In this document: in pieces, positions 8,151 through 64,000 of the stretch
Layout of the letters: each line of letters starts with the position of its first letter
How positions within the stretch are numbered: the stretch's first letter is position 1
Made by a program: the position numbers and the translations under genes
Notes under the pieces: model-generated
Told to the model about the DNA's origin: nothing
Database searches by the model: none
What the model saw: the letters and a program-made list of their open reading frames with translations, nothing else
Assembly (NCBI GenBank): GCA_964436865.1
Contig: CAYTFK010000002.1
Location: 20,890-84,889 of the forward strand
DNA: 64,000 bases
Source: an uncultured Planctomycetaceae bacterium
GTDB taxonomy: Bacteria > Planctomycetota > Planctomycetia > Pirellulales > Thermoguttaceae
Direction of reading: 5' to 3'

Positions 8151-10148
8151 CTATTTCGCCTGCTTCCGGCCGCCTTTCCTGCCCGGCACCGGCCGCTGCT
8201 GGTGGACGGCGGCGACGTAGTTGGGGTTGTCGGCCTGCCCGGTGATCTCGTAAAGGAACCGGCTGGGGATCGTGGGCCGGTCCTTGCCCCATTTCTTGCG
8301 GCTCAGGGCCAACGAGAGGGTGAGCCGCCGCTGGGCCCGGGTGACGCCGACGTAGCACAGCCGCCGCTCCTCGTCGATCGCCGAATCGTCGCCCTCGATC
8401 GAGCGGCGGTGTGGAAGGAAGCCTTCCTCCATCCCCACCAGGTAAACCTCGGCGAACTCCAGCCCTTTGGCCGCGTGAAGCGTCATTAGCGCGACGGCGT
8501 TCCGCTCCAACTGCTTTTCCTTGTCATCGCTGTCGTCGTTGCTTCCCAAGGCGATGTCCTGCAGGAATCCGGGCAATGTCGGCGATTCGGCCCGCTTCAC
8601 GTAATTCGCCGCCGCGTTGACGACCTCCTCCACCGAGTTCCAGCGGGCCTGCTGCTCTTCGGCGTCGGGATAGAGGCGGGCAAGCTCGGCGCGGTAATTG
8701 ATCTCCGTCAACAGCCTGGTCACGAGGTCGGGCAGCGACTTCTTGTGGAGCTCCATGTGGAAATGGTGGACCAGCGTTTGGAAACCGTGAATGCCGCGAA
8801 GGGCCGGCCCCGGCACGTTGCCCAGAGAAGCGGCCTGCGACAAAAGCTCCCAGACAGGGATGCCGCGGCGGACAGCCTCCTCCACGAGCCGTGTGGCCGT
8901 TGTCTGGCCGATGCCGCGAGGCGGCGTGTTGATCACGCGTAACAGCGAGACCTCGTCGCGCGGATTGGCCAGCACCTTGAGATAGGCAATGATGTCGCGC
9001 ACTTCCTTGCGGTCGTAAAACGACTGACCGCCGACGAGTACGTAGGGCACTTTTGCCCGCCGCAGTTCCATTTCGAACTGCCGCGGCTGCTCATTGGTGC
9101 GGAAGAGGATGGCGATGTCACGCGGCTGACGTTTCGTGGTGCGGATCCGCGACTGGATCTCTTCGACAACCGTCTTGGCTTCTGTCTCCTCATCGGGAAG
9201 CTGCACAATTCGCGGGGGTTCGCCGCGGACGACCGCGCGGAGGATCTTGCCGTGCCGAACCTTGTTGAACGCGATCAGACGGTTGGCCCAGGCGACGATC
9301 TCCTGGGTCGAGCGGTAGTTCATCTCCAGGCGAACCACCCGTGCCTCCGGCCAATCCTCCTTGAACCGCAGGATATGGGTGACCTCGGCGCCTCGCCAGC
9401 CGTAGATCGACTGGTCGTCGTCTCCCACCACGCACAGATTGCGATGGCCGGCAGCCAGGGCTTTGACGATCCGATACTGGCTGGCATTGGTGTCCTGGTA
9501 CTCGTCGACCAGGAGATGGTCGAAGCGACCGGCCTCGTCGCGGCGGACGTCGGGGAAGCGTTCGAAGAGCTCCTCCGTGAGCAGGAGCAGATCGTCGAAA
9601 TCGACTGCACCGGAAGCCTTGAGCGTCTTCTGATAGCGTCGGTAGGCCGCCGCGGCAAGGTGTTCCTTGTCGGTCTCGGCGATTGTGGCCGCGCGGTCGG
9701 GGCGGATCGAGGCGGTCTTCCAACGGCTGATGAAATAGATCAAGTCGCCCGGCCGAAGCAGCGCGTCGGCGACTCGGATCTCGCGAAGCGCCGACCTGGC
9801 AACGCTCTCCTGATCGCCGCGATCGTAGATGGCAAACTGGCTCGGGTATCCCAGGTGGTTGATATGCCGCCGCAGGACGCGGACGCAGAGCGAGTGGAAC
9901 GTGGAGATCTCCGGCTTTTCATCCCGCTTCTTCTTGCCGATCAGCTCGGCTACCCGTTGCTGCATCTCGGCGGCCGCCTTGTTGGTGAAGGTCACCGCCA
10001 GAATGCGATTGGGCTTCGTGCCATGACGGATCAGCCGGGCGATGCGGTACGTAACAACGCGAGTCTTGCCGGTGCCGGCCCCAGCGAGCACCAGCAGTGG
10101 GCCGCTCAGTGTGCTCACCGCTTCGAGTTGGGCGGCGTTCAGATCCAT
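8151..10148 (-). CDS. uvrD: ATP-dependent DNA helicase, UvrD/PcrA/Rep family
   Basis: Walker A AGAGTGKT preceded by LNAAQLEAV. Motif II DEYQDT. Length is typical of the family. The ATG at 10148 (MDLNAAQ) gives a canonical N-terminus. The track start at 10364 is TTG, and an alternative ATG lies at 10295. Confidence 0.88.
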   Translation of the reverse strand: MDLNAAQLEAVSTLSGPLLVLAGAGTGKTRVVTYRIARLIRHGTKPNRILAVTFTNKAAAEMQQRVAELIGKKKRDEKPEISTFHSLCVRVLRRHINHLGYPSQFAIYDRGDQESVARSALREIRVADALLRPGDLIYFISRWKTASIRPDRAATIAETDKEHLAAAAYRRYQKTLKASGAVDFDDLLLLTEELFERFPDVRRDEAGRFDHLLVDEYQDTNASQYRIVKALAAGHRNLCVVGDDDQSIYGWRGAEVTHILRFKEDWPEARVVRLEMNYRSTQEIVAWANRLIAFNKVRHGKILRAVVRGEPPRIVQLPDEETEAKTVVEEIQSRIRTTKRQPRDIAILFRTNEQPRQFEMELRRAKVPYVLVGGQSFYDRKEVRDIIAYLKVLANPRDEVSLLRVINTPPRGIGQTTATRLVEEAVRRGIPVWELLSQAASLGNVPGPALRGIHGFQTLVHHFHMELHKKSLPDLVTRLLTEINYRAELARLYPDAEEQQARWNSVEEVVNAAANYVKRAESPTLPGFLQDIALGSNDDSDDKEKQLERNAVALMTLHAAKGLEFAEVYLVGMEEGFLPHRRSIEGDDSAIDEERRLCYVGVTRAQRRLTLSLALSRKKWGKDRPTIPSRFLYEITGQADNPNYVAAVHQQRPVPGRKGGRKQAK

Positions 10149-18073: not shown

Positions 18074-18088
18074 TGGCACGCTGCTTGC
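18074..18088 (+). promoter_or_regulatory. candidate sigma54 (-24/-12) promoter upstream of groEL copy 1
   Basis: TGGCACG-CTGC-TTGC matches the TGGCAC-N5-TTGC consensus at all ten fixed positions. Correct orientation, about 147 nt upstream of the groEL start. Confidence 0.35.
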
Positions 18089-53912: not shown

Positions 53913-54190
53913 GCTGAATCCTCCAACAGCGGGGTACATGTCACTAGAACCGGCAAATTCTTCCTATTCTTCCCGGACTTCTTCATTTTGCTCGCCGCCG
54001 TGATATAGTGAGGCTAACATTGGACCGGCCGGCGGTTCGATAGACCTCATATATCCCCCCTTTTCCTAATGTTGCGTCTATTGGTATTCGCTCGGGAAGC
54101 AAAAGGCGAGGCGGCATTCGTTCCCAATTGCATGTGGGCAACGGCACCAGACTGGCTTCCAGCGCAAACCTCAAAAGTCCGAGCGGTCCG

Positions 54191-55456
54191 ATGCCACCAG
54201 AAGAAGTCGTCATCACGGGTGTGGGCGTAGTCAGCCCCATCGGCATCGGCAAGGATTGCTACTGGCAACAGATGTCCGCTGGGCGAAGCGGCGTGGGACC
54301 GGTCGGTTCCATTGACTCGGGTACTATTCCAGTGGCGGCGGCCGGCGAAGTGCGCGACTTCGATGCGAAGAAGTTCGTGACGCCGCGAAAGAACCTGAAG
54401 GTGATGGTCCGCGACTCGGAGTTGGGCGTGGCCGCCTCGGTGCTGGCCTGCCAGGATGCCAGGTTGAATCCGGGCGACGTCGACCCCGAGCGCTTCGGCG
54501 TCGTGCTGGGCGCCGACCGCATCAGCGGCCCGTTGAGCGATAGCGAGGAGCCGCATCGGCGGTGCATTGTCGACGGGCGGTTCGACTTCAGCCGCTGGGC
54601 CACCGACGGGATGTCGGTGGCGTTTCCTTTGGCTTTTCTCAAGGTGCTGCCCAACATGATCGCCTCGCACGTGTCGATCGCTCACGACGCGCGAGGCCCC
54701 AATAACACGATCCATCAGGGAGATGTGTCGGGGCTCTTGGCCATGGCCGAGGCGACGCGACTGATCCAGCGTGGGATGGCCGAAGCGGTGCTTGCCGGCG
54801 GCGCGAGTTCGATGCTGAAACCTTACGACTGGGTATGCCACTGCGTGGTTGGCCGAGTCTCGATGCGGCAGGCCGAACCGGAATCGATATGCCGGCCCTT
54901 TGATGCCGACCGTGACGGAGAAGTCAAAGGAGAAGGGGCGGCACTGCTTGTGCTCGAGAGCCGGCGCCATGCGGAAGCTCGCGGCGCCACAATCCTCGCG
55001 CGGATTCTCGGCTGCGCTTCGTCGTACGAGATCCAGAACGGCTCACCACGCAAGGGGGAAGGACTGCGGCGCGCCATCGGCGGGGCGATGCGCGAGGCCG
55101 CCGTCGAACCTCGCGGCGTGGGGCACGTCAACGCCCACGGTGCCAGCACGATCTTCGACGATGAGATCGAAGCCCGCGTCATCCGGGCTGTGCTGGGCGA
55201 CGTGCCGGTTACCGCACCGAAGAGCTACTTCGGCAATTTGGGGGCGGCCGCCGGAGCAGTGGAAATGGTCGCCAGCGTAATGTCGCTCCACACGGGACTG
55301 CTGCCGGTGACGCTCAACTACCGGCGTCCCGATCCGGCGTGCGCCGTCCGCGTGGTCCACGGCGAGCCGTGGAAATCGCCGGCCCCGGCGGCAGTGGTCG
55401 TCAACATGACTCGGGCCGGTCAGGCTGTGGCGATTGTGCTGTCGGCCGCGGAGTGA
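54191..55456 (+). CDS. beta-ketoacyl-ACP synthase (FabF/KAS II)-like protein lacking the catalytic Cys
   Basis: KAS fold (VVITGVGVVSPIG, VNAHGAST, GAAGAVE). The ACxSG position reads GDVSG (Asp178, 54722-54724). The second catalytic His reads Asn349 (GNLGAAAG, 55235-55237). Confidence 0.85.
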   Translation: MPPEEVVITGVGVVSPIGIGKDCYWQQMSAGRSGVGPVGSIDSGTIPVAAAGEVRDFDAKKFVTPRKNLKVMVRDSELGVAASVLACQDARLNPGDVDPERFGVVLGADRISGPLSDSEEPHRRCIVDGRFDFSRWATDGMSVAFPLAFLKVLPNMIASHVSIAHDARGPNNTIHQGDVSGLLAMAEATRLIQRGMAEAVLAGGASSMLKPYDWVCHCVVGRVSMRQAEPESICRPFDADRDGEVKGEGAALLVLESRRHAEARGATILARILGCASSYEIQNGSPRKGEGLRRAIGGAMREAAVEPRGVGHVNAHGASTIFDDEIEARVIRAVLGDVPVTAPKSYFGNLGAAAGAVEMVASVMSLHTGLLPVTLNYRRPDPACAVRVVHGEPWKSPAPAAVVVNMTRAGQAVAIVLSAAE

Positions 55457-56043
55457 CTCGGCGCGGCCGCGGGCTGGGCACTGGCGGTGGCCTTGACGGC
55501 GAATTCATAACGCCCCCACGCCATAAGCAGCAGCAGGATCGCGACGAGTATCGCTGCCAGCGAGATCCCCAGCAATACCGTGTCGAGACTTGCCTGCTGA
55601 AGTTTGCCCACAAGACCCTCGCCCGGCTCCCGCGGCTTCTTCACTTTTTTCGGCTTGGCGGCCGGTTCCTCTGCCACATCGGACACGCCCTCAGCGGCAA
55701 GAACCTCGCCCACCCCGGCTTGAGCAGGCTCGCCCGGCAAAGGCGTGGGCTCGACGACCGCCGCCTCACCCGTAGCGTCCACTAACGGGTCGCCGGTCGG
55801 CAGGGAGAAATCATCTTCCGGGAGGTCAAATTCGTTGCGTTCTGGGGTCTTGCCATCAGACACGGCGTGCTCTCCGGGCTCTGAACCCGCGGATAACCAG
55901 GCGAAAGTACTTCCCCCTCCATTATAATTCGAGGCTTTCGGACTGCCACGAAAAACACGAAGCGGGACCGCCGAGTCACCCCCCTCTACGGATGGGTCGC
56001 AATAATCCGTGCCGCGCGACTGCGCCGCGGAGCGTCGCACCAA
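55420..56043 (-). CDS. hypothetical acidic/Pro-rich protein with C-terminal TM anchor
   Basis: Only plausible frame in this interval and GC3-rich. One TM (VLLGISLAAILVAILLLLMAW). The start is uncertain: TTG at 56043, or a GTG preceded by GGAG further in (VSDGK...). Confidence 0.4.
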   Translation of the reverse strand: MVRRSAAQSRGTDYCDPSVEGGDSAVPLRVFRGSPKASNYNGGGSTFAWLSAGSEPGEHAVSDGKTPERNEFDLPEDDFSLPTGDPLVDATGEAAVVEPTPLPGEPAQAGVGEVLAAEGVSDVAEEPAAKPKKVKKPREPGEGLVGKLQQASLDTVLLGISLAAILVAILLLLMAWGRYEFAVKATASAQPAAAPSHSAADSTIATA

Positions 56044-56065: not shown

Positions 56066-56251
56066 CTAGCGGCTGGAGAGGTTCCAGTTGTTTAGCACGT
56101 CTTCAGAGCCGGGCGTCAGGTTGCGGACCTTCTCGACGATCACCGACTTCTCCGAAACAGTCGCCTTGGCCAGCCGCTTCTCAAGTCGAGCCAGTTTCTG
56201 GCGGCGGTGACGCCGGCGCTTGAGTTCCTTCTTACGCTCGCTGATCGACAC
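56066..56251 (-). CDS. small basic protein, unknown function
   Basis: GTG at 56251 with AAGGAG about 8 nt upstream, giving a 61-aa Lys/Arg-rich helical peptide (SERKKELKRRRHRRQKLARLEKRL...). The track ORF extends to 56311. Confidence 0.5.
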   Translation of the reverse strand: MSISERKKELKRRRHRRQKLARLEKRLAKATVSEKSVIVEKVRNLTPGSEDVLNNWNLSSR

Positions 56252-56323
56252 GGCAAGGGCTCCTTGACGGGTGCTGGTCTCTGGATGGGAAACCAGTATT
56301 TTTATCACCAACCGGCAAGGAGG

Positions 56324-57460
56324 TCAATCGTCACTCTCGGCGGGGTCGCGCAGCGTCACCGTGAATGTGCTCCCTGCGTCCGGCCGGCTATCGACCGTCA
56401 CGGAGCCCCGGTAGAGCGCGGCGAGTTTCTGGACGATGGAAAGGCCCAGGCCGCTGCCAAGAATTTCGCGCGTCTTGTCGTTCCGGATGCGAACGAATTC
56501 ATGAAACAGTTGCGATCGTTCGTCGTCAGTCATGCCGATACCCGTATCGGTCACCGTGAGGCGCACCGTGTCGCCTTGACGTTCGATCCCTATCTCGACC
56601 GACCCGCCGTCGCGGTTGTACTTCACCGCGTTTGAGACCAGATTGTTGAGAATCATCTGCAACTCGCCGCGATCGGCCGCTAGTGTAACCGCCGGTTCGT
56701 CGAGCAGTCGGATGGTGATCCCGCGTCCGGCGGCCTGCGCGGCCACGGTCTCGATCGCCGATTGGGCCGCCGCCTTGAGGCACACCGGTTCGATCTGCCG
56801 GTTCTTGCGGCCCGACTCGATGTGTGTCAGATCCAGCAAGTCGTCGATGAGCTTCCGCATGCCGTCTAGCCGGGCATGGCAACGGCCGAGGGCTTGGGAG
56901 TAGGCAGCCAGTTCGTTGCCCATCGCACGATCGTCAAGCATCGCGAGATAGCCGTCGATGGCGTTCAGTGGGGCCTTGAGTTCATGGCCGAGCACGCGGA
57001 TGAACTCGAAGCGGACTTGTCGCTTCTCGTCGGCCAGGCGCCGAGTCTGCTTGGCGAGTATCAGGCGGGCCGCCGCCTTGCGGACCGTGCTGCGAAGTTC
57101 GTCCGGCGTGAAAGGCTTGGCGAGAAAATCGTAGGCCCCGCGCTTGGTGGCGGTCACGGCAGTCTCGATCGAGGCGTACGCCGTGATCATGATCACGAGC
57201 ATGTCGAGCTTCATGCCTGCCAGGCGGTCAAGCACGTCGAGCCCGCTGATGCCCGGCATCTTGTGATCCAGCAGCAGGATGTCGGGCGGTTCGGTCTGGA
57301 TCTTCTCCAGCGCCGCTTCGCCCGACTCCGCCTGATCGACGGCGAAGCCGATCGGGCCGGCAATGTCGGGCATAGTGAAACTGAACTCTCGGAGCGTCCG
57401 CTCGACGCCCCGCCGCATGCCGAATTCGTCGTCGGTAACCAGAACGCGGAGCGTTTCCAT
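56324..57460 (-). CDS. hybrid receiver-histidine kinase (REC-HisKA-HATPase)
   Basis: REC domain (VLVTDDE...LLLDHKMPG...KP). H-box LGHELKAPLN. N box LVSNAVKYN. G boxes DTGIGM and GSGLGLS. Confidence 0.88.
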   Translation of the reverse strand: METLRVLVTDDEFGMRRGVERTLREFSFTMPDIAGPIGFAVDQAESGEAALEKIQTEPPDILLLDHKMPGISGLDVLDRLAGMKLDMLVIMITAYASIETAVTATKRGAYDFLAKPFTPDELRSTVRKAAARLILAKQTRRLADEKRQVRFEFIRVLGHELKAPLNAIDGYLAMLDDRAMGNELAAYSQALGRCHARLDGMRKLIDDLLDLTHIESGRKNRQIEPVCLKAAAQSAIETVAAQAAGRGITIRLLDEPAVTLAADRGELQMILNNLVSNAVKYNRDGGSVEIGIERQGDTVRLTVTDTGIGMTDDERSQLFHEFVRIRNDKTREILGSGLGLSIVQKLAALYRGSVTVDSRPDAGSTFTVTLRDPAESDD

Positions 57461-57466
57461 GGCGGT

Positions 57467-57979
57467 TCAATTCGTCAACAGCCGCTCGATCTCGGTGCTG
57501 AGCTGCTCGAAGCGGATCGGCTTGGTGAGAAAGGCGTCGGCCTTGATCCAGGACCGTTCCTCCGCCGTCGCCGTATCGAACTCCAGGCCCGTCTCGCGGT
57601 TCACCGAGCTCACGAGGATGATGGGGATCGACGGATCTTTCTTCTTGATATGATAGCAGAGCGTGAAGCCGCCGTCAGGATTCTCCATCATCAGGTCGAC
57701 CACTGCCAGGTCGGGCCGGCGGTGCGAGAGGATCTCCTCGGCCCGGCTCTCCCCTTCGGCGATGATCACCTCGAAGCCCGCGGCCTCGAGCCGCGTCTTC
57801 TGCTGGAAAAGGAAATCGGCGTCGTCGTCGACCAGCAGGACGATCTTGTTGGCTTGTTCGATGCTCATGGCTTCGTGCTTTCTCGGAGACGGGTTGATAC
57901 GTTCTTGCAGCATTTCCAGCCGGTAGGCGATCACGGGCGCTGCCTGGATGGACGGGATAATTGGGGTGCGGGGGATCAT
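57467..57979 (-). CDS. single-domain response regulator (CheY-like receiver, no output domain)
   Basis: REC motifs (LLVDDD, DLAVVDLMM, LVSS, LTKP). The ATG at 57979 forms an ATGA overlap with the upstream kinase stop. An alternative ATG at 57868 (MSIEQANK) gives a minimal 133-aa receiver. Confidence 0.85.
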   Translation of the reverse strand: MIPRTPIIPSIQAAPVIAYRLEMLQERINPSPRKHEAMSIEQANKIVLLVDDDADFLFQQKTRLEAAGFEVIIAEGESRAEEILSHRRPDLAVVDLMMENPDGGFTLCYHIKKKDPSIPIILVSSVNRETGLEFDTATAEERSWIKADAFLTKPIRFEQLSTEIERLLTN

Positions 57980-59955
57980 TCGCGGCGGGGCAAGGTTACG
58001 GTGAACGCGGTCCAGGTCGGCCCCACGGCCGGATCGGGCTGCGAATCCACGCGGATATCGCCGCAGTGCATCTTGATGATCCCGTAGCTCACCGCCAGCC
58101 CCAGGCCCGTTCCCTTGCCCGATTCCTTGGTCGTGAAGAACGGCTCAAAGATCTTGGCGAGATTCTGCTTCGGGATGCCGACGCCCGTGTCGCTCACCTG
58201 CACCGATACGCGCTGGGCGTCGCCGCTGGTGCGGATCGTCAGGCGGCCGCCGTGGACCATGGCGGCCATCGCATTGGTGACCAGGTTGGTGAGCACCTGG
58301 ATGATCTGGTCGCCGTCCACCTCGACGATCGGGTCGTCAAGGTCGTGGCGGACGTCAATTGAAATGTCGTCCGGCACCCTGGTCGCGTTCAGGGTCCGAT
58401 CGATGAGGTTTCGCAGATCGACCGGTTGCCGGACGACTTTGTGCTGGCGGGCGAAATGGAGCAGCCCCGCGACGATTTTCTTGCAGCGATCAGCCTGCTC
58501 GGTAATCATCGTCAGGTCGTCGCGAATCCGCGGATCCTGGCACTCATCGAGCAGGAGGTGTGCATACATCAGGACCACGCCAAGCGGGTTGTTCACTTCA
58601 TGGGCAATCCCTGCCGCCAACTGCCCCATGCTGGCCATCTTCTCCGACTGCATGAGGGCTTCCTGGGTGCGGGCGAGCTGCCGGTTCGAGGCCTCGATGT
58701 CGGCCAGCGCGCACTGGAGCTGATCGATCATGAATGGCAGGCACATCTCGTTTTCTGCCAGCCCCTTATAGATCGCCACGGCATGCTCGCGGCAGGAATC
58801 GTATCCGCAGGCTCCGCAATTCAACTCGTCATCGGGGGAGTACTTCCCCATCCCGGCCATGATCTCGGTCAGCTCCTCCGGCGCCGGAAGCGGGATCCGC
58901 TGGTCGTTGGGCTGGAACGTCCGCCGCAGATCGAGATCGCTGAAGCGGTCCATGTCGCCCTGCCACTGCTCGATGTCGAGGGCCGCCATGCGGCGGTTGA
59001 CATGCACGCGGACATGGCGGCGGCGGTTGAACAGCGGCAGATCGTTGTTGATCCCGGCCCCCATGATGCAGCCTTCGCAGCACAGGGCTTCGAGCAGCTT
59101 CGCCCCCAGATCGCCGTCGGAGAACTCCTTGATCGCCTCGATCATGTGGGCGCGGCCCTGCGTCGAGACGACTTCGCCGTTCATCAAGTCTTCTTCAATC
59201 TCGGCGGCCTGGAGGATGCCGCGGCTGATGGGGAACAAGCCGCCAGCGGCGCCGTGGGGCGGGTCGAAATGGCTCGGATCTATCGCGCCGGGCCGGATGC
59301 CTTGCTCCTGGCACATGCGGCGAAATTCAGCAAAGGTCAGCACGCCGTCGATCTCGGCCGCTACTTCCTCCGCCTCCGCTTCACACTTCTTCGCGATGCA
59401 CGGCCCGATGAAGACCACGTTGACCTCGCGGCCGTGCAACGCGCGGATGACGCGTGCCGTTGCAATCATCGGCGATACGACCGGGGCAAGCGACCCAACC
59501 ATCTGCGGATAGTACTTCTGGACGTAACTGGCGACCGCCGGACAGGTGGTGGCGATATGGCGATGGCCGTTCGTGTTCCCCACCAGCCGGCGATACTGCC
59601 GGGCAACCAGGTCGGCGCCAAACGACACCTCGTGGACAAGGTGGAAGCCCAACGCGCGGGCCATGCCCGCCACTTCCTCCGCCGAGGCATCGATGAATTC
59701 GGCAGGGAAACTGGGGGCGAAGCACGCCGCCACCCGCTCTCCCGACTGGATGAGCTCCCTTACTTGCGGAACGGTGTCACGGATCTGCTTGGCTCGCTGC
59801 GAGCACACGCGGACGCAGTTTCCGCACGCGATGCATCGGTCCCCAATCACCTCGGCCTGCCCGGCGACTATGCGAATCGCCTTGGCCGGACACTCGCGGA
59901 CGCACGTGTAGCACATGCGGCAGCGTTCGCCGATAGTGGTGATGTAGGCGTTCAT
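57976..59955 (-). CDS. [FeFe]-hydrogenase-like sensory domain fused to a histidine kinase
   Basis: Two N-terminal 4Fe-4S motifs ([24 protein letters not shown]). H-cluster-type motifs in variant form ([19 protein letters not shown]). Cys-rich CGACGYDSC module. Then H-box AHEVNNP and HATPase boxes ([21 protein letters not shown]). Confidence 0.88.
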
Positions 59956-60022
59956 GGCAGGCAGGGCTCTCTCGACTCCTCACGCTCCCAACGAGACACT
60001 CGCCTGGAGCACGGCAGGCGCC

Positions 60023-61807
60023 TCAGACCAGGGCCTCACGTCTCACGTAATGGGTATGCAGCAGGTGGTGGCTCTTCTCGCCGAGCGGCACGCCCAGATA
60101 CTCATTGTACAAGCGCTGGACGGCCTCATTGGCGTGCGAGGTTCGGACGCTCTCGCGATCGTCGATCTCATACAGGGCCTGCATCCGCGACCTCACCGCA
60201 CTGGAATCGGTGCCGATCGGCTGGCCGCCGCCGTTGATGCAGCCGCCGGGGCAGGTCATCACCTCGATGAAGTGCAGATCCTTGCGTTTGCCCGCCCGCA
60301 ATTCGTCCAGCAGTCGCCGGGCGTTGCCCAGACCGCTCACCACGGCGACCCCCAGTTCGATGCCGTTGACCGCCACGCGGGCTTCTTTCACGCCCTCCAG
60401 GCCACGCACCGCTTGCACATGAAGATCGGGCAGTTCCTGGCCGGTGACCAGGTAATGCGCCGTGCGGATCGCCGCCTCCATCACGCCGCCCGATGCCCCA
60501 AACAGCTTGCCCGCCGTGGTCCGTTCGCCAAATGGCGTGTCGGCCGTGTCGGGGGCGAGTTCCCGCAGGTCGATGCTTCGCATGCGAATCAGCTTGGCGA
60601 GTTCCCGAGTGGTGAGCACCGCGTCGACGTCGGCCACCCCGTTGTGGGTCAGCTCGCTGCGGCCGGCTTCAAACTTCTTCGCCGTGCAGGGCATGATGCT
60701 GACGGTGAAGATCTTGTCGCGATCAATCCCCTCGCGCTCGGCGAAGTAGCTCTTGATCACCGCGCCCATCATCTGCTGAGGGCTCTTGCAGGTGGAGAGG
60801 TTCTCGATGAAGTTGGGATAGAACGTCTCGACGGTCTTGATCCAGCCCGGCGAGCAACTGGTCATCATCGGCAGCTTCAGGCCGTTGGTCAGCCGGTGGA
60901 CAAACTCGGAGGCCTCCTCCATGATCGTCAGATCGGCGGTGAAGCCGGTGTCGAACACGCGCTTGAAACCGAGCCGCCGCAGGGCGGCCGTCATCGCTCC
61001 GACGACGTCCATGCCGGCCGGCAACCCGAATTCCTCGCCCAGTGTCACCGACACCGCGGGGGCGTGCTGCACGACGACGAACTTCTCGGGGTTTTCCAGC
61101 GCCGCAAGCACATCCTTCAAATGGCTCTGCTCGCTCAGCGCCCCGGTCGGGCAGGCCATGATGCACTGCCCGCAGTTGATGCAACTCGATATGTTCAGGC
61201 CTTCGTCGAACGCGGTGCCGACCTTGGTCTTTGACCCTCGGCCGATGAAGTCGATGGCGGCGATCCCCTGGACCTCCTCGCAGACGCGGACGCACTTGCC
61301 GCAGAGGATGCATTTCGCCGGGTCGCGGCTGATCGAGGGGCTGGAATTGTCGAGGAAATGCCGGCTCTTCTCCCCCGCGAAACGGCGGCTGCGGACGCCC
61401 AGCTCCTCGGCCATCCCCTGCAGGTCGCAGCGCCCGTTGCGGACGCAGTACAGGCAATCGTCGGGGTGGTTGGCCAGGAGCAATTCGATGATCGTCTTGC
61501 GGGCGTCGACGGCGCGCTTGGAATGCGTCTGAACCTTCATTCCCTCGGCGACCGGGTAGGCACAGCTCGGCACCAGCCCGCGCTGCCCCTCGACCTCGAC
61601 CACGCACATCCGACAAGCGCCGGTGGCCGGCAGGCCGTCGATGTTGCACAGTGTGGGCACCTTGATTCCCACGCGACGCAGCGCGGTCAGGAGCATCTCC
61701 CCTTTTTCGGCCTGGACGGACCGCCCGTTGACTTCAATGGTGACCATGGGCTTGCTTACCTCTTCTTGGTATTCGCTGGGACAACCGAACCCGGCCCCGA
61801 CCACCAT
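60023..61807 (-). CDS. hydA: [FeFe]-hydrogenase catalytic subunit HydA-like (M3 architecture plus small-subunit-like tail)
   Basis: N-terminal 2Fe-2S fold, HxxxCxxCxxxxxC, two 4Fe-4S motifs and H-domain motifs TSCSPGW / MPCTAKKFE / EVMTCPGGCINGGGQP. The ATG at 61807 has GGGAGG 5 nt upstream. An alternative ATG at 61747 gives MVTIEVNG. Confidence 0.9.
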   Translation of the reverse strand: MVVGAGFGCPSEYQEEVSKPMVTIEVNGRSVQAEKGEMLLTALRRVGIKVPTLCNIDGLPATGACRMCVVEVEGQRGLVPSCAYPVAEGMKVQTHSKRAVDARKTIIELLLANHPDDCLYCVRNGRCDLQGMAEELGVRSRRFAGEKSRHFLDNSSPSISRDPAKCILCGKCVRVCEEVQGIAAIDFIGRGSKTKVGTAFDEGLNISSCINCGQCIMACPTGALSEQSHLKDVLAALENPEKFVVVQHAPAVSVTLGEEFGLPAGMDVVGAMTAALRRLGFKRVFDTGFTADLTIMEEASEFVHRLTNGLKLPMMTSCSPGWIKTVETFYPNFIENLSTCKSPQQMMGAVIKSYFAEREGIDRDKIFTVSIMPCTAKKFEAGRSELTHNGVADVDAVLTTRELAKLIRMRSIDLRELAPDTADTPFGERTTAGKLFGASGGVMEAAIRTAHYLVTGQELPDLHVQAVRGLEGVKEARVAVNGIELGVAVVSGLGNARRLLDELRAGKRKDLHFIEVMTCPGGCINGGGQPIGTDSSAVRSRMQALYEIDDRESVRTSHANEAVQRLYNEYLGVPLGEKSHHLLHTHYVRREALV

Positions 61808-61874
61808 GCCTGCCTCCCGCGGTCGGCTCCGCGACGCTCCGCCTGGCTCGTTGCCAATACAGGCTTCAAACGGA

Positions 61875-63851
61875 CTAAGCTTTCATGACCGCGCCCAGCC
61901 GGCAGGCATCCAGACAGGATCCGCAGCCGATGCAACGGTCTTCGATGATGTAATGGGGATTCTTCGGCGAGCCGATGATCGCATCGGCGGGGCACTTCTT
62001 GGCGCACAGCGTGCAGCCCTTGCATTTCTCCGCATTGATCGAGTACGTCACCAGTTCGGCGCAGGCCCCGGCCGGACAGCGCCGGTCGTACACGTGGGCC
62101 TCGTACTCGTGGCGGAACCACCTGAGCGTGCTCAGCACCGGGTTGGGGGCCGTCTGCCCCAGGCCGCAGAGGCTCGTGTCGCGGATCGTCTCCGCCAGCC
62201 GCTGCAGGTGGAGCACGCTCTGGAACCGCTCCAGGGCCTCCAGCTCCTTCTCGTGCCGGCGCCCCCGGGTGATCCGCTTGAGGATCTCCAGCATCCGCCG
62301 CGTTCCCTCGCGGCAGGGAATGCATTTGCCGCAGCTCTCGCGCTGGATGAAGTCCATGAAGAACTTGGCCACGTCGACCATGCAGGTCTCTTCATCCATC
62401 ACCACCAGGCCGCCGGAGCCCATCATCGCACCGACGGTCTTCAGCGACTCGTAGTCGACGTCGATGTCGAGGTGCTGCTCCGGAATGCAGCCGCCCGACG
62501 GCCCGCCGATCTGCACCGATTTGTACTTCTTGCCGTAGGGGATGCCGCCGCCGATGTCGAACACGATCTGGCGGACCGTTGTTCCCATCGCCACCTCGAC
62601 CAGGCCCGTCCGGGCGACCTTCCCCGACAGTGCGAAGACCTTCGTCCCCTTGCTGGTCTTGGTCCCCAGAGCGCTGAACCACTCGTGGCCGCGGTCGATG
62701 AGCATCGGCACGTTGGCCAGCGTCTCGACGTTGTTGATAATCGTCGGCTTCGCAAATAGGCCGCTCACCGCGGGGAACGGCGGACGCGGACGCGGCATGC
62801 CGCGTTTTCCCTCGATACTGTTGATCAGCGCCGTCTCCTCCCCGCAGACAAACGCCCCGGCTCCCTGCTTGATCACGATGTGCAGCGAGAAACCGGTGCC
62901 CAGCATGCTGTCGCCCAGCAGTCCGTACGACTCGGCCTGGCCGATGGCGATCTTGAGCCGCTCGATGGCCAGCGGATACTCCGCCCGGATGTAAACGTAG
63001 GCCTTCGAGGCGCCGATCGCATAGGCGGCGATCGCCATGCCTTCCAGCAGCCGGTGCGGGTCCCCTTCGATCACCGCCCGATCCATGAACGCGCCGGGGT
63101 CTCCCTCGTCGGCGTTGCAGACGAGATACTTCTGGCCGGCCTGCGAGGCACGGGCGAACTTCCACTTCTTGCCGGTCGAAAAGCCGCCGCCCCCCCGGCC
63201 GCGAAGCCCGCTCCGTTCAACCGTGTCGCAAACCTCGTCGGGCGTCTGCTTGCGGAGCACCTTGGCCAATGCCGCGTAGCCGCCGCGGGCGATGTACTCA
63301 TCGATCGAATTCGGATCGATCAGGCCGCAGTTGGCCAGCACCCACCGGGTTTGCGGAGCGAAGAACGGATGCTCGTCGAGGTACGGCACCTCGCTCCAGG
63401 GGTTGAGGCCGCTTGATCGATGCTGGCCGAGTACGCTGTCGCGCGGCACGTCGCCGCGAAATACGCCGTCCAGCACGGCGTCGACCTCTTTCCTCGAAAT
63501 CCTCTCGAAGGCCAGTCGCGTCCGGCCGGGCATCTGCACTTCGACGATCGGTTCGGCCGAACAGAGGCCGATGCAGCCGACCTCGACGACATCGGCCTCG
63601 ATGCCGTGCCGCTGAAGGTACTCGCGCACCGCCGCGATCGTCCCCTTCGCCCCCGCGCCCAGGCCGCAGGTGCCCGCGCCGATGAAGATGGCCGGACGAA
63701 CCAACTGCTCGCGCCGCAACTCGCCAAAGCGCCGCTCGCGCTCCGCGCGGTCCTGGCCGTTGCCGTCCGGCCCATCGGCCAAAACCCAGTCGAGAATCTG
63801 CCGGCCGGCCTCGGGAGCGGCCAGGGTGCTGTCTGCGTCAGGCTGCTTCAT
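61875..63851 (-). CDS. hydB: NuoF-like flavoprotein subunit (HydB/HndC type) of an NAD(P)-linked hydrogenase
   Basis: N-terminal thioredoxin-like 2Fe-2S (GTCGLGAGA...CIGLCSAEP). FMN/NADH motifs (GRGGGGFSTGKKW, GAGAFVCGEETAL). N3 cluster CGKCIPCREG. Two C-terminal 4Fe-4S motifs. ATG at 63851 with GGAGG upstream. Confidence 0.9.
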   Translation of the reverse strand: MKQPDADSTLAAPEAGRQILDWVLADGPDGNGQDRAERERRFGELRREQLVRPAIFIGAGTCGLGAGAKGTIAAVREYLQRHGIEADVVEVGCIGLCSAEPIVEVQMPGRTRLAFERISRKEVDAVLDGVFRGDVPRDSVLGQHRSSGLNPWSEVPYLDEHPFFAPQTRWVLANCGLIDPNSIDEYIARGGYAALAKVLRKQTPDEVCDTVERSGLRGRGGGGFSTGKKWKFARASQAGQKYLVCNADEGDPGAFMDRAVIEGDPHRLLEGMAIAAYAIGASKAYVYIRAEYPLAIERLKIAIGQAESYGLLGDSMLGTGFSLHIVIKQGAGAFVCGEETALINSIEGKRGMPRPRPPFPAVSGLFAKPTIINNVETLANVPMLIDRGHEWFSALGTKTSKGTKVFALSGKVARTGLVEVAMGTTVRQIVFDIGGGIPYGKKYKSVQIGGPSGGCIPEQHLDIDVDYESLKTVGAMMGSGGLVVMDEETCMVDVAKFFMDFIQRESCGKCIPCREGTRRMLEILKRITRGRRHEKELEALERFQSVLHLQRLAETIRDTSLCGLGQTAPNPVLSTLRWFRHEYEAHVYDRRCPAGACAELVTYSINAEKCKGCTLCAKKCPADAIIGSPKNPHYIIEDRCIGCGSCLDACRLGAVMKA

Positions 63852-64000
63852 GGCCGTTTCCCTCCGCCGCCTTCCTGTAAGAATCAAGAATCTTGCTTAC
63901 CTTCTGTGTGGTGACCCCGGCGTGAAACTCGCCATTGATGGCGATTACCGGGGCCAAACCGCACGCGCCGATGCAGGCGACCACTTCCAGACTGAACATG
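63838..64000 (-). CDS. hydC: NuoE-like [2Fe-2S] subunit (HydC/HndA type), 3' end only
   Basis: Minus-strand frame reads ...FSLEVVACIGACGLAPVIAINGEFH...GNGHEAA*, matching the NuoE C-terminal CxxxC...AP motif. It runs off the window edge and overlaps the hydB start by 14 nt. Confidence 0.78.
   Translation of the reverse strand, partial: MFSLEVVACIGACGLAPVIAINGEFHAGVTTQKVSKILDSYRKAAEGNGHEAA

Follow-up and report, generated by a model that had tools for sequence, protein, structure and literature searches.

A HydS-type [FeFe]-hydrogenase module fused to a histidine kinase beside a planctomycete HydABC-type hydrogenase, and its putative route to an NtrC-type sigma-54 activator

What does a histidine kinase encoded directly behind an [FeFe] hydrogenase perceive, and where does its signal go? 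This question is raised by a 64,000-nt stretch of planctomycete DNA (hereafter the window; G000:C2:20890-84889), in which a string of hydrogenase and signalling genes, studied here at window positions 56066-64000 on the minus strand, extends past both ends of that interval. The genome, G000, is a metagenome-assembled, contaminated draft (7.1 Mb, 64% GC, 467 contigs, 94% complete, 7.8% contamination); C2, C29, C146 and the other C-numbers below are its contigs, and L001 is a stretch that reaches past the window end. The nearest named genome is a Thermoguttaceae metagenome-assembled genome (Planctomycetota, Pirellulales) from an anaerobic membrane bioreactor, with a sensor protein 97% identical to the one described here. 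We find that the kinase is continuous with a HydS-type sensory [FeFe]-hydrogenase module, and that a sigma-54 promoter and an enhancer, both conserved in related planctomycetes, lie upstream of the hydrogenase genes. In the circuit that we consider somewhat more likely than not, this HydS-kinase would sense H2 and act through an NtrC-type activator on enhancer-dependent sigma-54 operons.

Domains of the three signalling proteins were called with Pfam at a threshold of E<=0.001. For comparison, 80 genome loci of relatives were examined, and counts are given over informative subsets (n=68, 61, 53, 50, 10); because related loci are not independent, these counts are descriptive only. The reversed enhancer pattern served as control in motif scans. 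The HydS-kinase comprises the following features:

57976..59955, minus strand: HydS-type sensory [FeFe]-hydrogenase fused to a histidine kinase, 659 aa (Pfam, one open reading frame)
Sensor residues 9-54: two [4Fe-4S] motifs (Fer4; Pfam)
59056..59736, minus strand (residues 74-300): H-cluster domain Fe_hyd_lg_C (PF02906, E 3e-44)
58735..58824, minus strand (residues 378-407): C-terminal Cx2Cx4Cx16C cluster motif (PF04060)
57982..58629, minus strand (residues 443-658): NtrB/AtoS/ZraS-like transmitter (HisKA 443-504, HATPase 547-658)

The original prediction had labelled this protein a sensor-kinase; the kinase stands, and its input is a HydS-type H-cluster module matching PF02906. No Pfam match to a PAS domain, the C-terminal feature from which sensing has been proposed for the characterised group C members, was obtained in the HydS-kinase, where a helical linker of ~35 residues joins the C-terminal iron-sulfur (FeS) motif to HisKA. 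For a residue check, the protein was aligned to CpI. The sensor keeps all four CpI-equivalent H-cluster cysteines (C300, C355, C499 and C503) as well as K358, E361, P324 and the A230-P231-S232 loop; the proton path is gone, with Thr at C299, a gap at E279, Ala at S319 and Leu at R286, and M353 and M497 are replaced by Gly and Leu, respectively. Across 36 homologs, the cysteines of the H-cluster (C138, C186, C293, C296) and of the C-terminal motif (C380, C383, C388, C405) are invariant, as are the phospho-histidine and the ATP-lid glycines of the kinase part.

These traits are largely those of TmHydS (Thermotoga maritima, group C, subclass M2f), which likewise has two N-terminal [4Fe-4S] motifs, the H-domain cysteines and the C-terminal Cx2Cx4Cx16C signature, has lost Cys299 and the proton path, carries Gly in place of M353, and is encoded adjoining a HydABC-type hydrogenase (PMC8163306). 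Unlike TmHydS, which ends in a PAS domain without known output partner, the protein described here continues from the FeS motif into a complete HisKA-HATPase. Its third H-cluster motif (window 59068-59079, residues 293-296) also differs, reading E-x-L-x-C-x-x-C throughout the kinase-fused clade and being one residue shorter than in TmHydS and than the canonical ExMxCxxxC; the genome's own PAS-type HydS, to which residues 7-410 are 41% identical, keeps CxxxC. TamHydS (Thermoanaerobacter mathranii, group D, M2e), for which the Cx2Cx4Cx16C motif has been described together with TmHydS (PMC8163306), is a PAS-less sensory-type protein encoded next to a bifurcating HydABC, in a locus flanked by a kinase-like ATPase and a transcription factor (PMC8163306). 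There, however, M353 is replaced by Ser and the kinase-like gene is separate, whereas here the residue is Gly, the group C pattern, and the kinase is fused.

An AlphaFold model of the HydS-kinase (mean pLDDT 70.5) reached 85-95 over the H-domain, and the best PDB matches of the predicted structure were all [FeFe] hydrogenases (~430 aligned columns, E 1e-15). Prediction was poor for the loop of the third motif, for the linker and for the DHp helices, and the model carries no information on signal transmission. The transmitter scored 209 bits against the NCBIfam AtoS model and 164 bits against ZraS, both under cut-off, with ZraS as its best PDB match and HEVNNPL as its H-box. Its closest paralogs within the genome are kinases encoded beside NtrC-type regulators (174 bits on C111, 172 on C29, the next at 135). 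By its sequence, then, the sensor is a HydS-type (group C) module with a putative H-cluster, fused without a PAS domain to an NtrB-like transmitter. Since its input is a HydS-type H-cluster module, H2 is its likely signal; both H2 and its sign are what we infer.

The same residues are compatible with a different signal. The sensor could report the redox state of the ferredoxin/NADH pool rather than H2, its FeS chain being reduced by ferredoxin or by HydABC and its H-domain serving as a scaffold without a working [2Fe] site, like Narf/Nar1-type proteins. The non-canonical CxxC motif and the lost proton path would suit such a protein, as would its three accessory clusters and the presence of a Hdr/Flx-like NAD(P)H/ferredoxin complex in the regulon (see below). 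Given this motif and the published doubt on motifs in group C1 proteins (PMC11406978), H-cluster binding by the sensor is not certain, although the CxxC spacing may itself account for the failure elsewhere to find standard motifs in these proteins. Against a mere scaffold speak the invariance of the four H-cluster cysteines and of the Lys and Glu that hold the [2Fe] site, a substitution pattern equal to that of TmHydS, which binds an H-cluster (PMC8163306), and the maturases encoded in the genome and, in relatives, right behind the relay genes. We deem redox sensing of this kind improbable.

The genome holds seven H-domain matches in total. A second sensory locus lies on C44 (L026:8666-12557, minus strand), where a hydA extended C-terminally by a NuoE-like part, and truncated by the contig end, is accompanied by the PAS-type HydS (629 aa) and then by a PP2C/SpoIIE phosphatase. 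Its sensor module is paralogous to that of the HydS-kinase (41% over 400 residues) and likewise stands downstream of a hydA, but PAS and a Ser/Thr phosphatase take the place of the histidine kinase and receivers on the output side.

Is this kinase truly part of the hydrogenase locus? The genes that accompany it within the window are:

56324..57460, minus strand: second kinase, REC + HisKA + HATPase, 378 aa (Pfam REC 6-126, HisKA 152-217, HATPase 263-372)
57467..57979, minus strand: receiver-only protein, 170 aa (Pfam REC 47-164; possible internal start M38)
60023..61807, minus strand: hydA, catalytic [FeFe]-hydrogenase subunit (NCBIfam NF040763, 836 bits against a cut-off of 765)
61875..63887, minus strand: hydB, NuoF-like flavoprotein subunit (Pfam Complex1_51K, NADH_4Fe-4S, C-terminal Fer4 pair)
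63838..64000, minus strand: hydC, NuoE-like subunit, 3' part (PF01257)

As originally described, they belong to one minus-strand string with short gaps or overlaps, and all seven open reading frames (ORFs) were found in place with the domains attributed to them. The order is hydC-hydB-hydA-hydS(kinase)-REC-REC/kinase-DUF6800-tail ORF, all on the minus strand with gaps <=67 nt; counted upward from the DUF6800 gene, the intergenic gaps measure 12, 6, -4 (ATGA), 67 and 67 nt, and hydB and hydC overlap. A scan of the string for hairpin terminators and sigma-70 promoters, uninformative at 64% GC, returned one weak hairpin within hydB and neither element at the gene junctions. We infer that hydCBA, the signalling genes and two small lineage-specific ORFs form a single, co-transcribed operon.

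The comparison of loci argues in the same direction. The fusion family is very large: out of 8,000 scored candidates, 7,999 proved to be related, and the top 120 all share the fusion architecture at 63-71% identity. The 80 loci come from Planctomycetota, Hydrogenedentota, Fermentibacteria, Calditrichota, KSB1, Marinimicrobia, Lentisphaerota/Victivallales, Elusimicrobia, Eisenbacteria and Myxococcota, and the cassette of hydCBA, HydS-kinase, REC and REC-kinase genes is conserved in about ten phyla. Thus, hydC-hydB-hydA precede the HydS-kinase in 41/53 loci, the REC-kinase follows it within 2.5 kb in 64/68, and the receiver-only gene is adjacent to it in 55/68. Radical-SAM maturase genes hydG/hydE stand directly after the second kinase in 24/61 loci, and hydF was found in 10 loci. 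An identical order recurring in dozens of loci from many phyla makes a chance arrangement of the string untenable, and this conservation of order, together with the maturase genes behind the second kinase, supports that the signalling genes belong to the hydrogenase locus. That they would instead be unrelated neighbours, expressed independently, perhaps from promoters housed in the 67-nt gaps before hydA and hydS, we regard as very improbable: besides the order kept across these phyla and the maturase genes placed after the relay genes, the sensor is itself hydrogenase-derived, and the enhancer and promoter described below directly precede hydS where hydABC is absent.

The signalling genes themselves do not reveal an output. 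In agreement with the original prediction, none of the three proteins contains a helix-turn-helix (HTH), sigma-54 AAA+, Hpt or enzymatic output domain at the Pfam threshold used. The receiver-only gene is, as had also been noted, coupled to the kinase gene through ATGA, its ATG overlapping the stop of the upstream hydS-kinase gene; its product has the acceptor Asp, the Ser/Thr and the Lys of receivers, and an unusual insertion after beta-4. The second kinase is complete, with acceptor Asp, phospho-histidine (GHELKAPL) and N, G1 and G2 boxes. Its transmitter is PhoR-like (HELKAPL), unlike the NtrB-like transmitter of the sensor, and the closest paralog of its receiver within the genome is the receiver of the NtrC-type regulator on C29. 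No clear partner for its transmitter was found within the genome, where the best paralog, at 118 bits, is generic. The multi-step phosphorelay once proposed for these proteins is unsupported, because they lack an Hpt/Spo0B-like domain and the second protein has all the parts of a kinase behind an N-terminal receiver. A receiver-gated second kinase, accompanied by a stand-alone receiver, describes the set better.

The two partners are distributed differently. The receiver-only gene is present in 49/50 loci with hydA adjoining the sensor vs 1/10 without (loci L030-L109), so that it tracks hydA, while the REC-kinase tracks the sensor. In four loci (L068, L070, L097 and L107) the receiver-only gene lies between hydA and hydS. 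This distribution would suit a post-translational output in which the receiver-only protein, once phosphorylated, would bind to HydABC or some other protein and alter its activity, with no need for a DNA-binding protein; the absence of an output domain, the insertion after beta-4 and the translational coupling to the sensor would fit as well. Co-occurrence may, however, merely mirror inheritance of one cassette among related loci, a contact of the receiver with HydABC is purely hypothetical, and stand-alone receivers often act as phosphate sinks. Both as the sole output and as a throttle on HydABC running parallel to the sigma-54 loop, we judge such phosphorylation-dependent control by the receiver to be quite improbable.

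Where the signal could go instead emerges from the DNA upstream of hydC, past the window end, in which two control elements were located:

L001:9298-9312 (C2:85297-85311, window-equivalent 64408-64422), minus strand: sigma-54 promoter TGGCACaccacTTGC, an exact match to the -24 GG/-12 GC element TGGCAC-N5-TTGC
C2:85514-85538 (window-equivalent 64625-64649), minus strand: enhancer ATACAGTGTACGGGTCGATCATACA, pattern ATACA-S-TGTAY-N9-RTACA

The genome contains only 24 exact copies of TGGCAC-N5-TTGC vs ~16 expected from base composition. Among the 13 closest planctomycete loci, a promoter element lies within ~150 nt of hydC in all 13, as an exact match in 11 and with CGGCAC in two, and the spacers differ. 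The hydC enhancer starts 227 nt upstream of the promoter's first base. Allowing <=1 mismatch, it is found in 14/14 loci (our own and 13 relatives), starting 144-238 nt upstream of the first base of the promoter. An enhancer paired with a promoter was seen at 18 related planctomycete loci, and the reversed pattern yielded 0 matches in 1.32 Mb of related loci. In five loci that lack hydABC, the pair stands directly upstream of the hydS-kinase gene. With rpoN (C271) and ~25 sigma-54 activators encoded in the genome, the operon is predicted to be sigma-54-dependent and enhancer-activated. A second exact TGGCAC-N5-TTGC is present in the window at 18074-18088 on the plus strand (C2:38963), with no enhancer motif nearby.

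Which activator would bind the enhancer? The original prediction held that the target of the relay could not be identified from the window; comparison makes a probable one identifiable, namely a sigma-54 promoter, an enhancer and an NtrC-type regulator, whose ortholog in this genome is encoded on C29. A REC/sigma-54 AAA+ regulator is divergently encoded beside the enhancer in 10 hydC-containing loci and, in addition, in L057, L060 and L061. In most relatives, this regulator occupies the region upstream of the hydC control elements, where no ORF with a Pfam family was found in the present genome (L001:9358-12161, 2.8 kb upstream of the hydC control region, to the contig end). The relatives' regulators share one best match in the genome, C29:35647-37143, at 64-76% identity, vs 54-59% for the next paralog and ~40% for others; the C29 protein consists of REC, Sigma54_activat, AAA lid and HTH_8 domains, and a Cache-HAMP histidine kinase precedes it. 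An orphan response regulator as the output was accordingly rejected in that form, the C29 candidate having a kinase beside it. Sigma-54 activators found downstream of the cassette in other phyla (L076, L078, L079, L081 and L107) were likewise set aside as not orthologous to the C29 protein (35-45% identity, no consistent best match). A paralogous pair of kinase and NtrC-type regulator is encoded on C111 (L142, ~C111:14650-17130, minus strand), its regulator being 54-59% identical to the relatives' hydrogenase-linked regulators; an exact sigma-54 motif follows that regulator at C111:14691, and then a second sigma-54 activator gene.

The full enhancer has exactly two copies in the genome, at hydC and on C146, where it lies ~275 nt upstream of another exact sigma-54 motif. 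Behind this second pair is an operon (L140:92-8860, minus strand) whose first gene encodes a 521-aa receiver fused to a GcvH-like (lipoyl-carrier-like) domain, with a C-terminal half without known family. There follow HdrC-, HdrB- and HdrA-like genes (HdrA2 model, 776 bits) and lastly genes for a 415-aa FeS protein, an AsrA/sulfhydrogenase-beta-like FeS protein and a NAD/FAD-binding gamma-like subunit, so that the product looks like a Hdr/Flx-type flavin-based complex. A receiver-GcvH fusion heading a Hdr/Flx-like operon is unusual. Among 30 relatives, the enhancer was found only in G001, G009, G010 and G011 (reversed control, 0). Three of these genomes are arranged as follows:

G009: regulator ortholog (72%), then enhancer, promoter and REC-GcvH gene
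G011: enhancer, then promoter and REC-GcvH gene
G010: one side with hydBC, promoter and enhancer, the opposite side with Cache kinase and regulator

The REC-GcvH gene stands just beyond the regulator, on the strand opposite to the hyd genes, in 11 loci, several of which end at a contig edge; HdrC comes next in six and HdrB in five. Overall, the regulator adjoins these elements in three arrangements. The ancestral layout was likely flx/hdr, REC-GcvH, promoter, enhancer, regulator (with or without the Cache kinase), enhancer, promoter, hydCBA, hydS-kinase, REC and REC-kinase. In this genome and its congener, the supercluster is split over three places, of which the hyd (C2) and hdr/flx (C146) parts keep their control elements; although the present genome is a contaminated draft, both target loci lie on one contig in the congener G001. 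Judged by the enhancer motif, the hyd and Hdr/Flx-like operons constitute a predicted two-operon regulon.

Taken together, the data suggest a circuit from HydS-kinase to NtrC-type activator to enhancer and sigma-54 operons, in which H2 sensing and wiring are the conjectural parts and which, as a whole, has in our judgement a somewhat better than even chance of being right. H2 would reduce the sensor's H-cluster and FeS chain, and the C-terminal cluster and the helical linker would shift the balance between autokinase and phosphatase activities of the fused transmitter. The phosphoryl signal could then reach two receivers, the stand-alone one encoded in the operon and the NtrC-like one of the second kinase, and, directly or via the second kinase, would most probably converge on the C29 activator, which in some genomes may listen to the Cache kinase too. 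This protein would bind ATACA-S-TGTAY-N9-RTACA and drive both the hyd operon and the REC-GcvH/HdrCBA/Flx-like operon, so that the H2 level would exert feedback on the production of hydrogenase and sensor alike, as well as of a second flavin-based electron-bifurcating complex. Which protein phosphorylates which is, in this scheme, as presumptive as H2 and its sign.

Several observations weigh against this circuit. The third H-cluster motif of the sensor is CxxC, one residue short of canonical, and standard motifs were not located in group C1 proteins by a study of Hydrogenedentota (PMC11406978). The genes directly coupled to the sensor are those of the receiver-only protein and the receiver-kinase, not that of the NtrC regulator, and the second kinase has a different, PhoR-like transmitter without clear partner. 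The C29 regulator has a Cache-HAMP kinase of its own next to it, so that its control can be accounted for without the HydS-kinase. In cassettes from other phyla, neither the promoter pattern nor that of the enhancer gave a match, and the transcriptional part may therefore be confined to planctomycetes. Finally, our literature search, whose coverage left most subscription journals outside, returned no biochemistry paper on a kinase-fused HydS.

In the main rival reading, the relay would bypass the NtrC activator altogether, passing from the HydS-kinase to the second kinase's receiver and through its PhoR-like transmitter to another regulator, while the Cache/NtrC pair would control transcription independently. 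The REC-kinase is indeed the most constant partner of the sensor (64/68 loci), its receiver is of the NtrC type and fits an NtrB-type sender, its transmitter is intact and of another subfamily, and the C29 regulator has its own kinase in this genome. In nine related loci, on the other hand, no Cache kinase lies <=10 kb from the NtrC regulator, and the sole kinases in the cluster are the HydS-kinase and the REC-kinase; the sensor's transmitter is, moreover, the closest paralog of the regulator-linked kinases, and the search for a partner of the second kinase ended at the generic 118-bit paralog. We consider such a bypass unlikely, though worth serious attention, and retain the route through the NtrC-type activator.

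What would the circuit control? The subunit set had been assigned to the group A3-like HydABC type, which is upheld by full-length alignment of HydA and HydB to the solved bifurcating enzymes from Thermoanaerobacter kivui, Acetobacterium woodii and T. maritima. HydA, whose probable start is M21 at 61747, comprises the Pfam domains Fer2_4, NADH-G_4Fe-4S_3, two Fer4, Fe_hyd_lg_C and Fe_hyd_SSU, combining H-cluster motifs with N-terminal [2Fe-2S] and [4Fe-4S] domains, and aligns over its whole length with T. kivui HydA1 (621 bits) and A. woodii HydA1 (591 bits); the name of its NF040763 model reads only 'NADH-dependent, group A6'. Its first H-cluster motif (window 60848-60862) is TSCSPGW, not TSCCP, with Ser aligned at CpI C300. 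A dead enzyme was considered on this account and rejected: TSCSP occurs in all 58 cassette-linked orthologs and in the solved A. woodii HydA1 (PDB 7q4v, bifurcating HydABCD complex), and is therefore a trait of the clade rather than damage; it has been noted once in Melainabacteria (PMC3787301). HydB, probably starting with ATG at 63851, scored 745 bits against its A. woodii counterpart and 681 bits against that of T. kivui, and T. maritima HydB aligns too. The extra N-terminal 2Fe-2S and C-terminal 2x[4Fe-4S] regions ascribed to it are both covered by the alignment to the solved HydB, and, as homology to full-length HydB starts at residue ~64, the protein includes the N-terminal thioredoxin-like [2Fe-2S] domain.

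The flank beyond 64000, to which the original prediction had pointed for the rest of hydC and for hydEFG, completes hydC but holds no hydEFG. The whole hydC ORF spans L001:8728-9357 on the same contig past the window end; its real start is probably GTG at L001:9216 or ATG at 9264 (window-equivalent 64326 and 64374), and the longer ORF, to L001:9357, runs over the promoter. That the window lacks hydE, hydF and hydG was correct, and they are missing from the remaining 4.1 kb of the contig as well; the maturase genes are elsewhere in the genome, all above curated cut-offs, with hydE and hydG on C55 and hydF on C210. From these homologies, hydCBA encodes a HydABC-type NAD(H)/ferredoxin-linked [FeFe] hydrogenase, with bifurcation itself as a prediction.

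At its downstream end, the string meets the following genes:

56066..56311, minus strand: DUF6800 protein, small and basic, 81 aa from TTG (PF20607, E 3e-16)
55420..56043, minus strand: tail ORF, 207 aa, no Pfam family; closes the string 22 nt behind the DUF6800 gene
54128-55456, plus strand: stand-alone beta-ketoacyl synthase-like (KAS-like) gene (Pfam ketoacyl-synt N and C)

DUF6800 occurs at this position in the congener (L030) only and therefore falls outside the conserved cassette; the tail ORF is likewise conserved in this congener only (87%), and both were discarded as parts of the system. The KAS-like gene converges on the tail ORF and overlaps the end of the string by 37 nt; a 307-aa minus-strand ORF was dismissed as the shadow of this gene.

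How much of this is already known? A fusion of this kind beside HydABC has been catalogued, as HydDB lists [FeFe] group C1 as 'histidine kinase-linked (putative)' (PMC5037454) and a 2024 study of Hydrogenedentota reports a kinase-domain protein, BfuT, beside BfuABC (sub-type V), with the same organisation in Caldithrix abyssi (PMC11406978). Like the HydS-kinase, these are group C H-domain proteins with kinase domains encoded beside group A3 hydrogenase genes, and Hydrogenedentota and Calditrichota loci are among the relatives found here. Those works classify, however; receiver partners, promoter, enhancer and DNA-binding regulator are not described in the text covered, nor does PMC11406978 mention response regulators or sigma factors. 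Functionally, the closest system is HoxBC-HoxJ-HoxA of Cupriavidus necator (also HupUV-HupT-HupR), in which a slow hydrogenase acts as H2 sensor controlling a histidine kinase, and hydrogenase operons have sigma-54 promoters at which a regulator of the NtrC family acts (PMC10073562). There, the sensor is a [NiFe] enzyme, non-homologous to the [FeFe] module found here, where sensor and kinase form one polypeptide and two extra receiver proteins and a second, Cache-type kinase tied to the regulator come in addition. In the literature covered, from which most subscription journals are excluded, nothing was found on sigma-54/NtrC control of [FeFe] hydrogenases. What the present analysis adds is the set of conserved receiver partners, the promoter with its enhancer, the regulator and a second target operon.

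For about a decade, group C [FeFe] hydrogenases have carried the label 'putative sensory'. To our knowledge, the members studied so far end in PAS domains and have no measurable output, and H2 sensing is still unproven. A kinase fusion offers a direct biochemical readout of it, namely autophosphorylation with and without H2, and the candidate receivers, candidate regulator, enhancer, sigma-54 promoter and second target operon supply, in the planctomycete version, the parts of a testable circuit or reporter. If correct, this circuit would be the [FeFe] counterpart of HoxBC-HoxJ-HoxA. Were the less probable receiver-based throttle also true, an H2 sensor kinase would restrain an electron-bifurcating hydrogenase post-translationally alongside the sigma-54 loop. 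Uncultured anaerobes from ten phyla or more commonly carry the cassette, and its logic is thus relevant to the way in which H2 production is set by fermenters and syntrophs of sediments and digesters.

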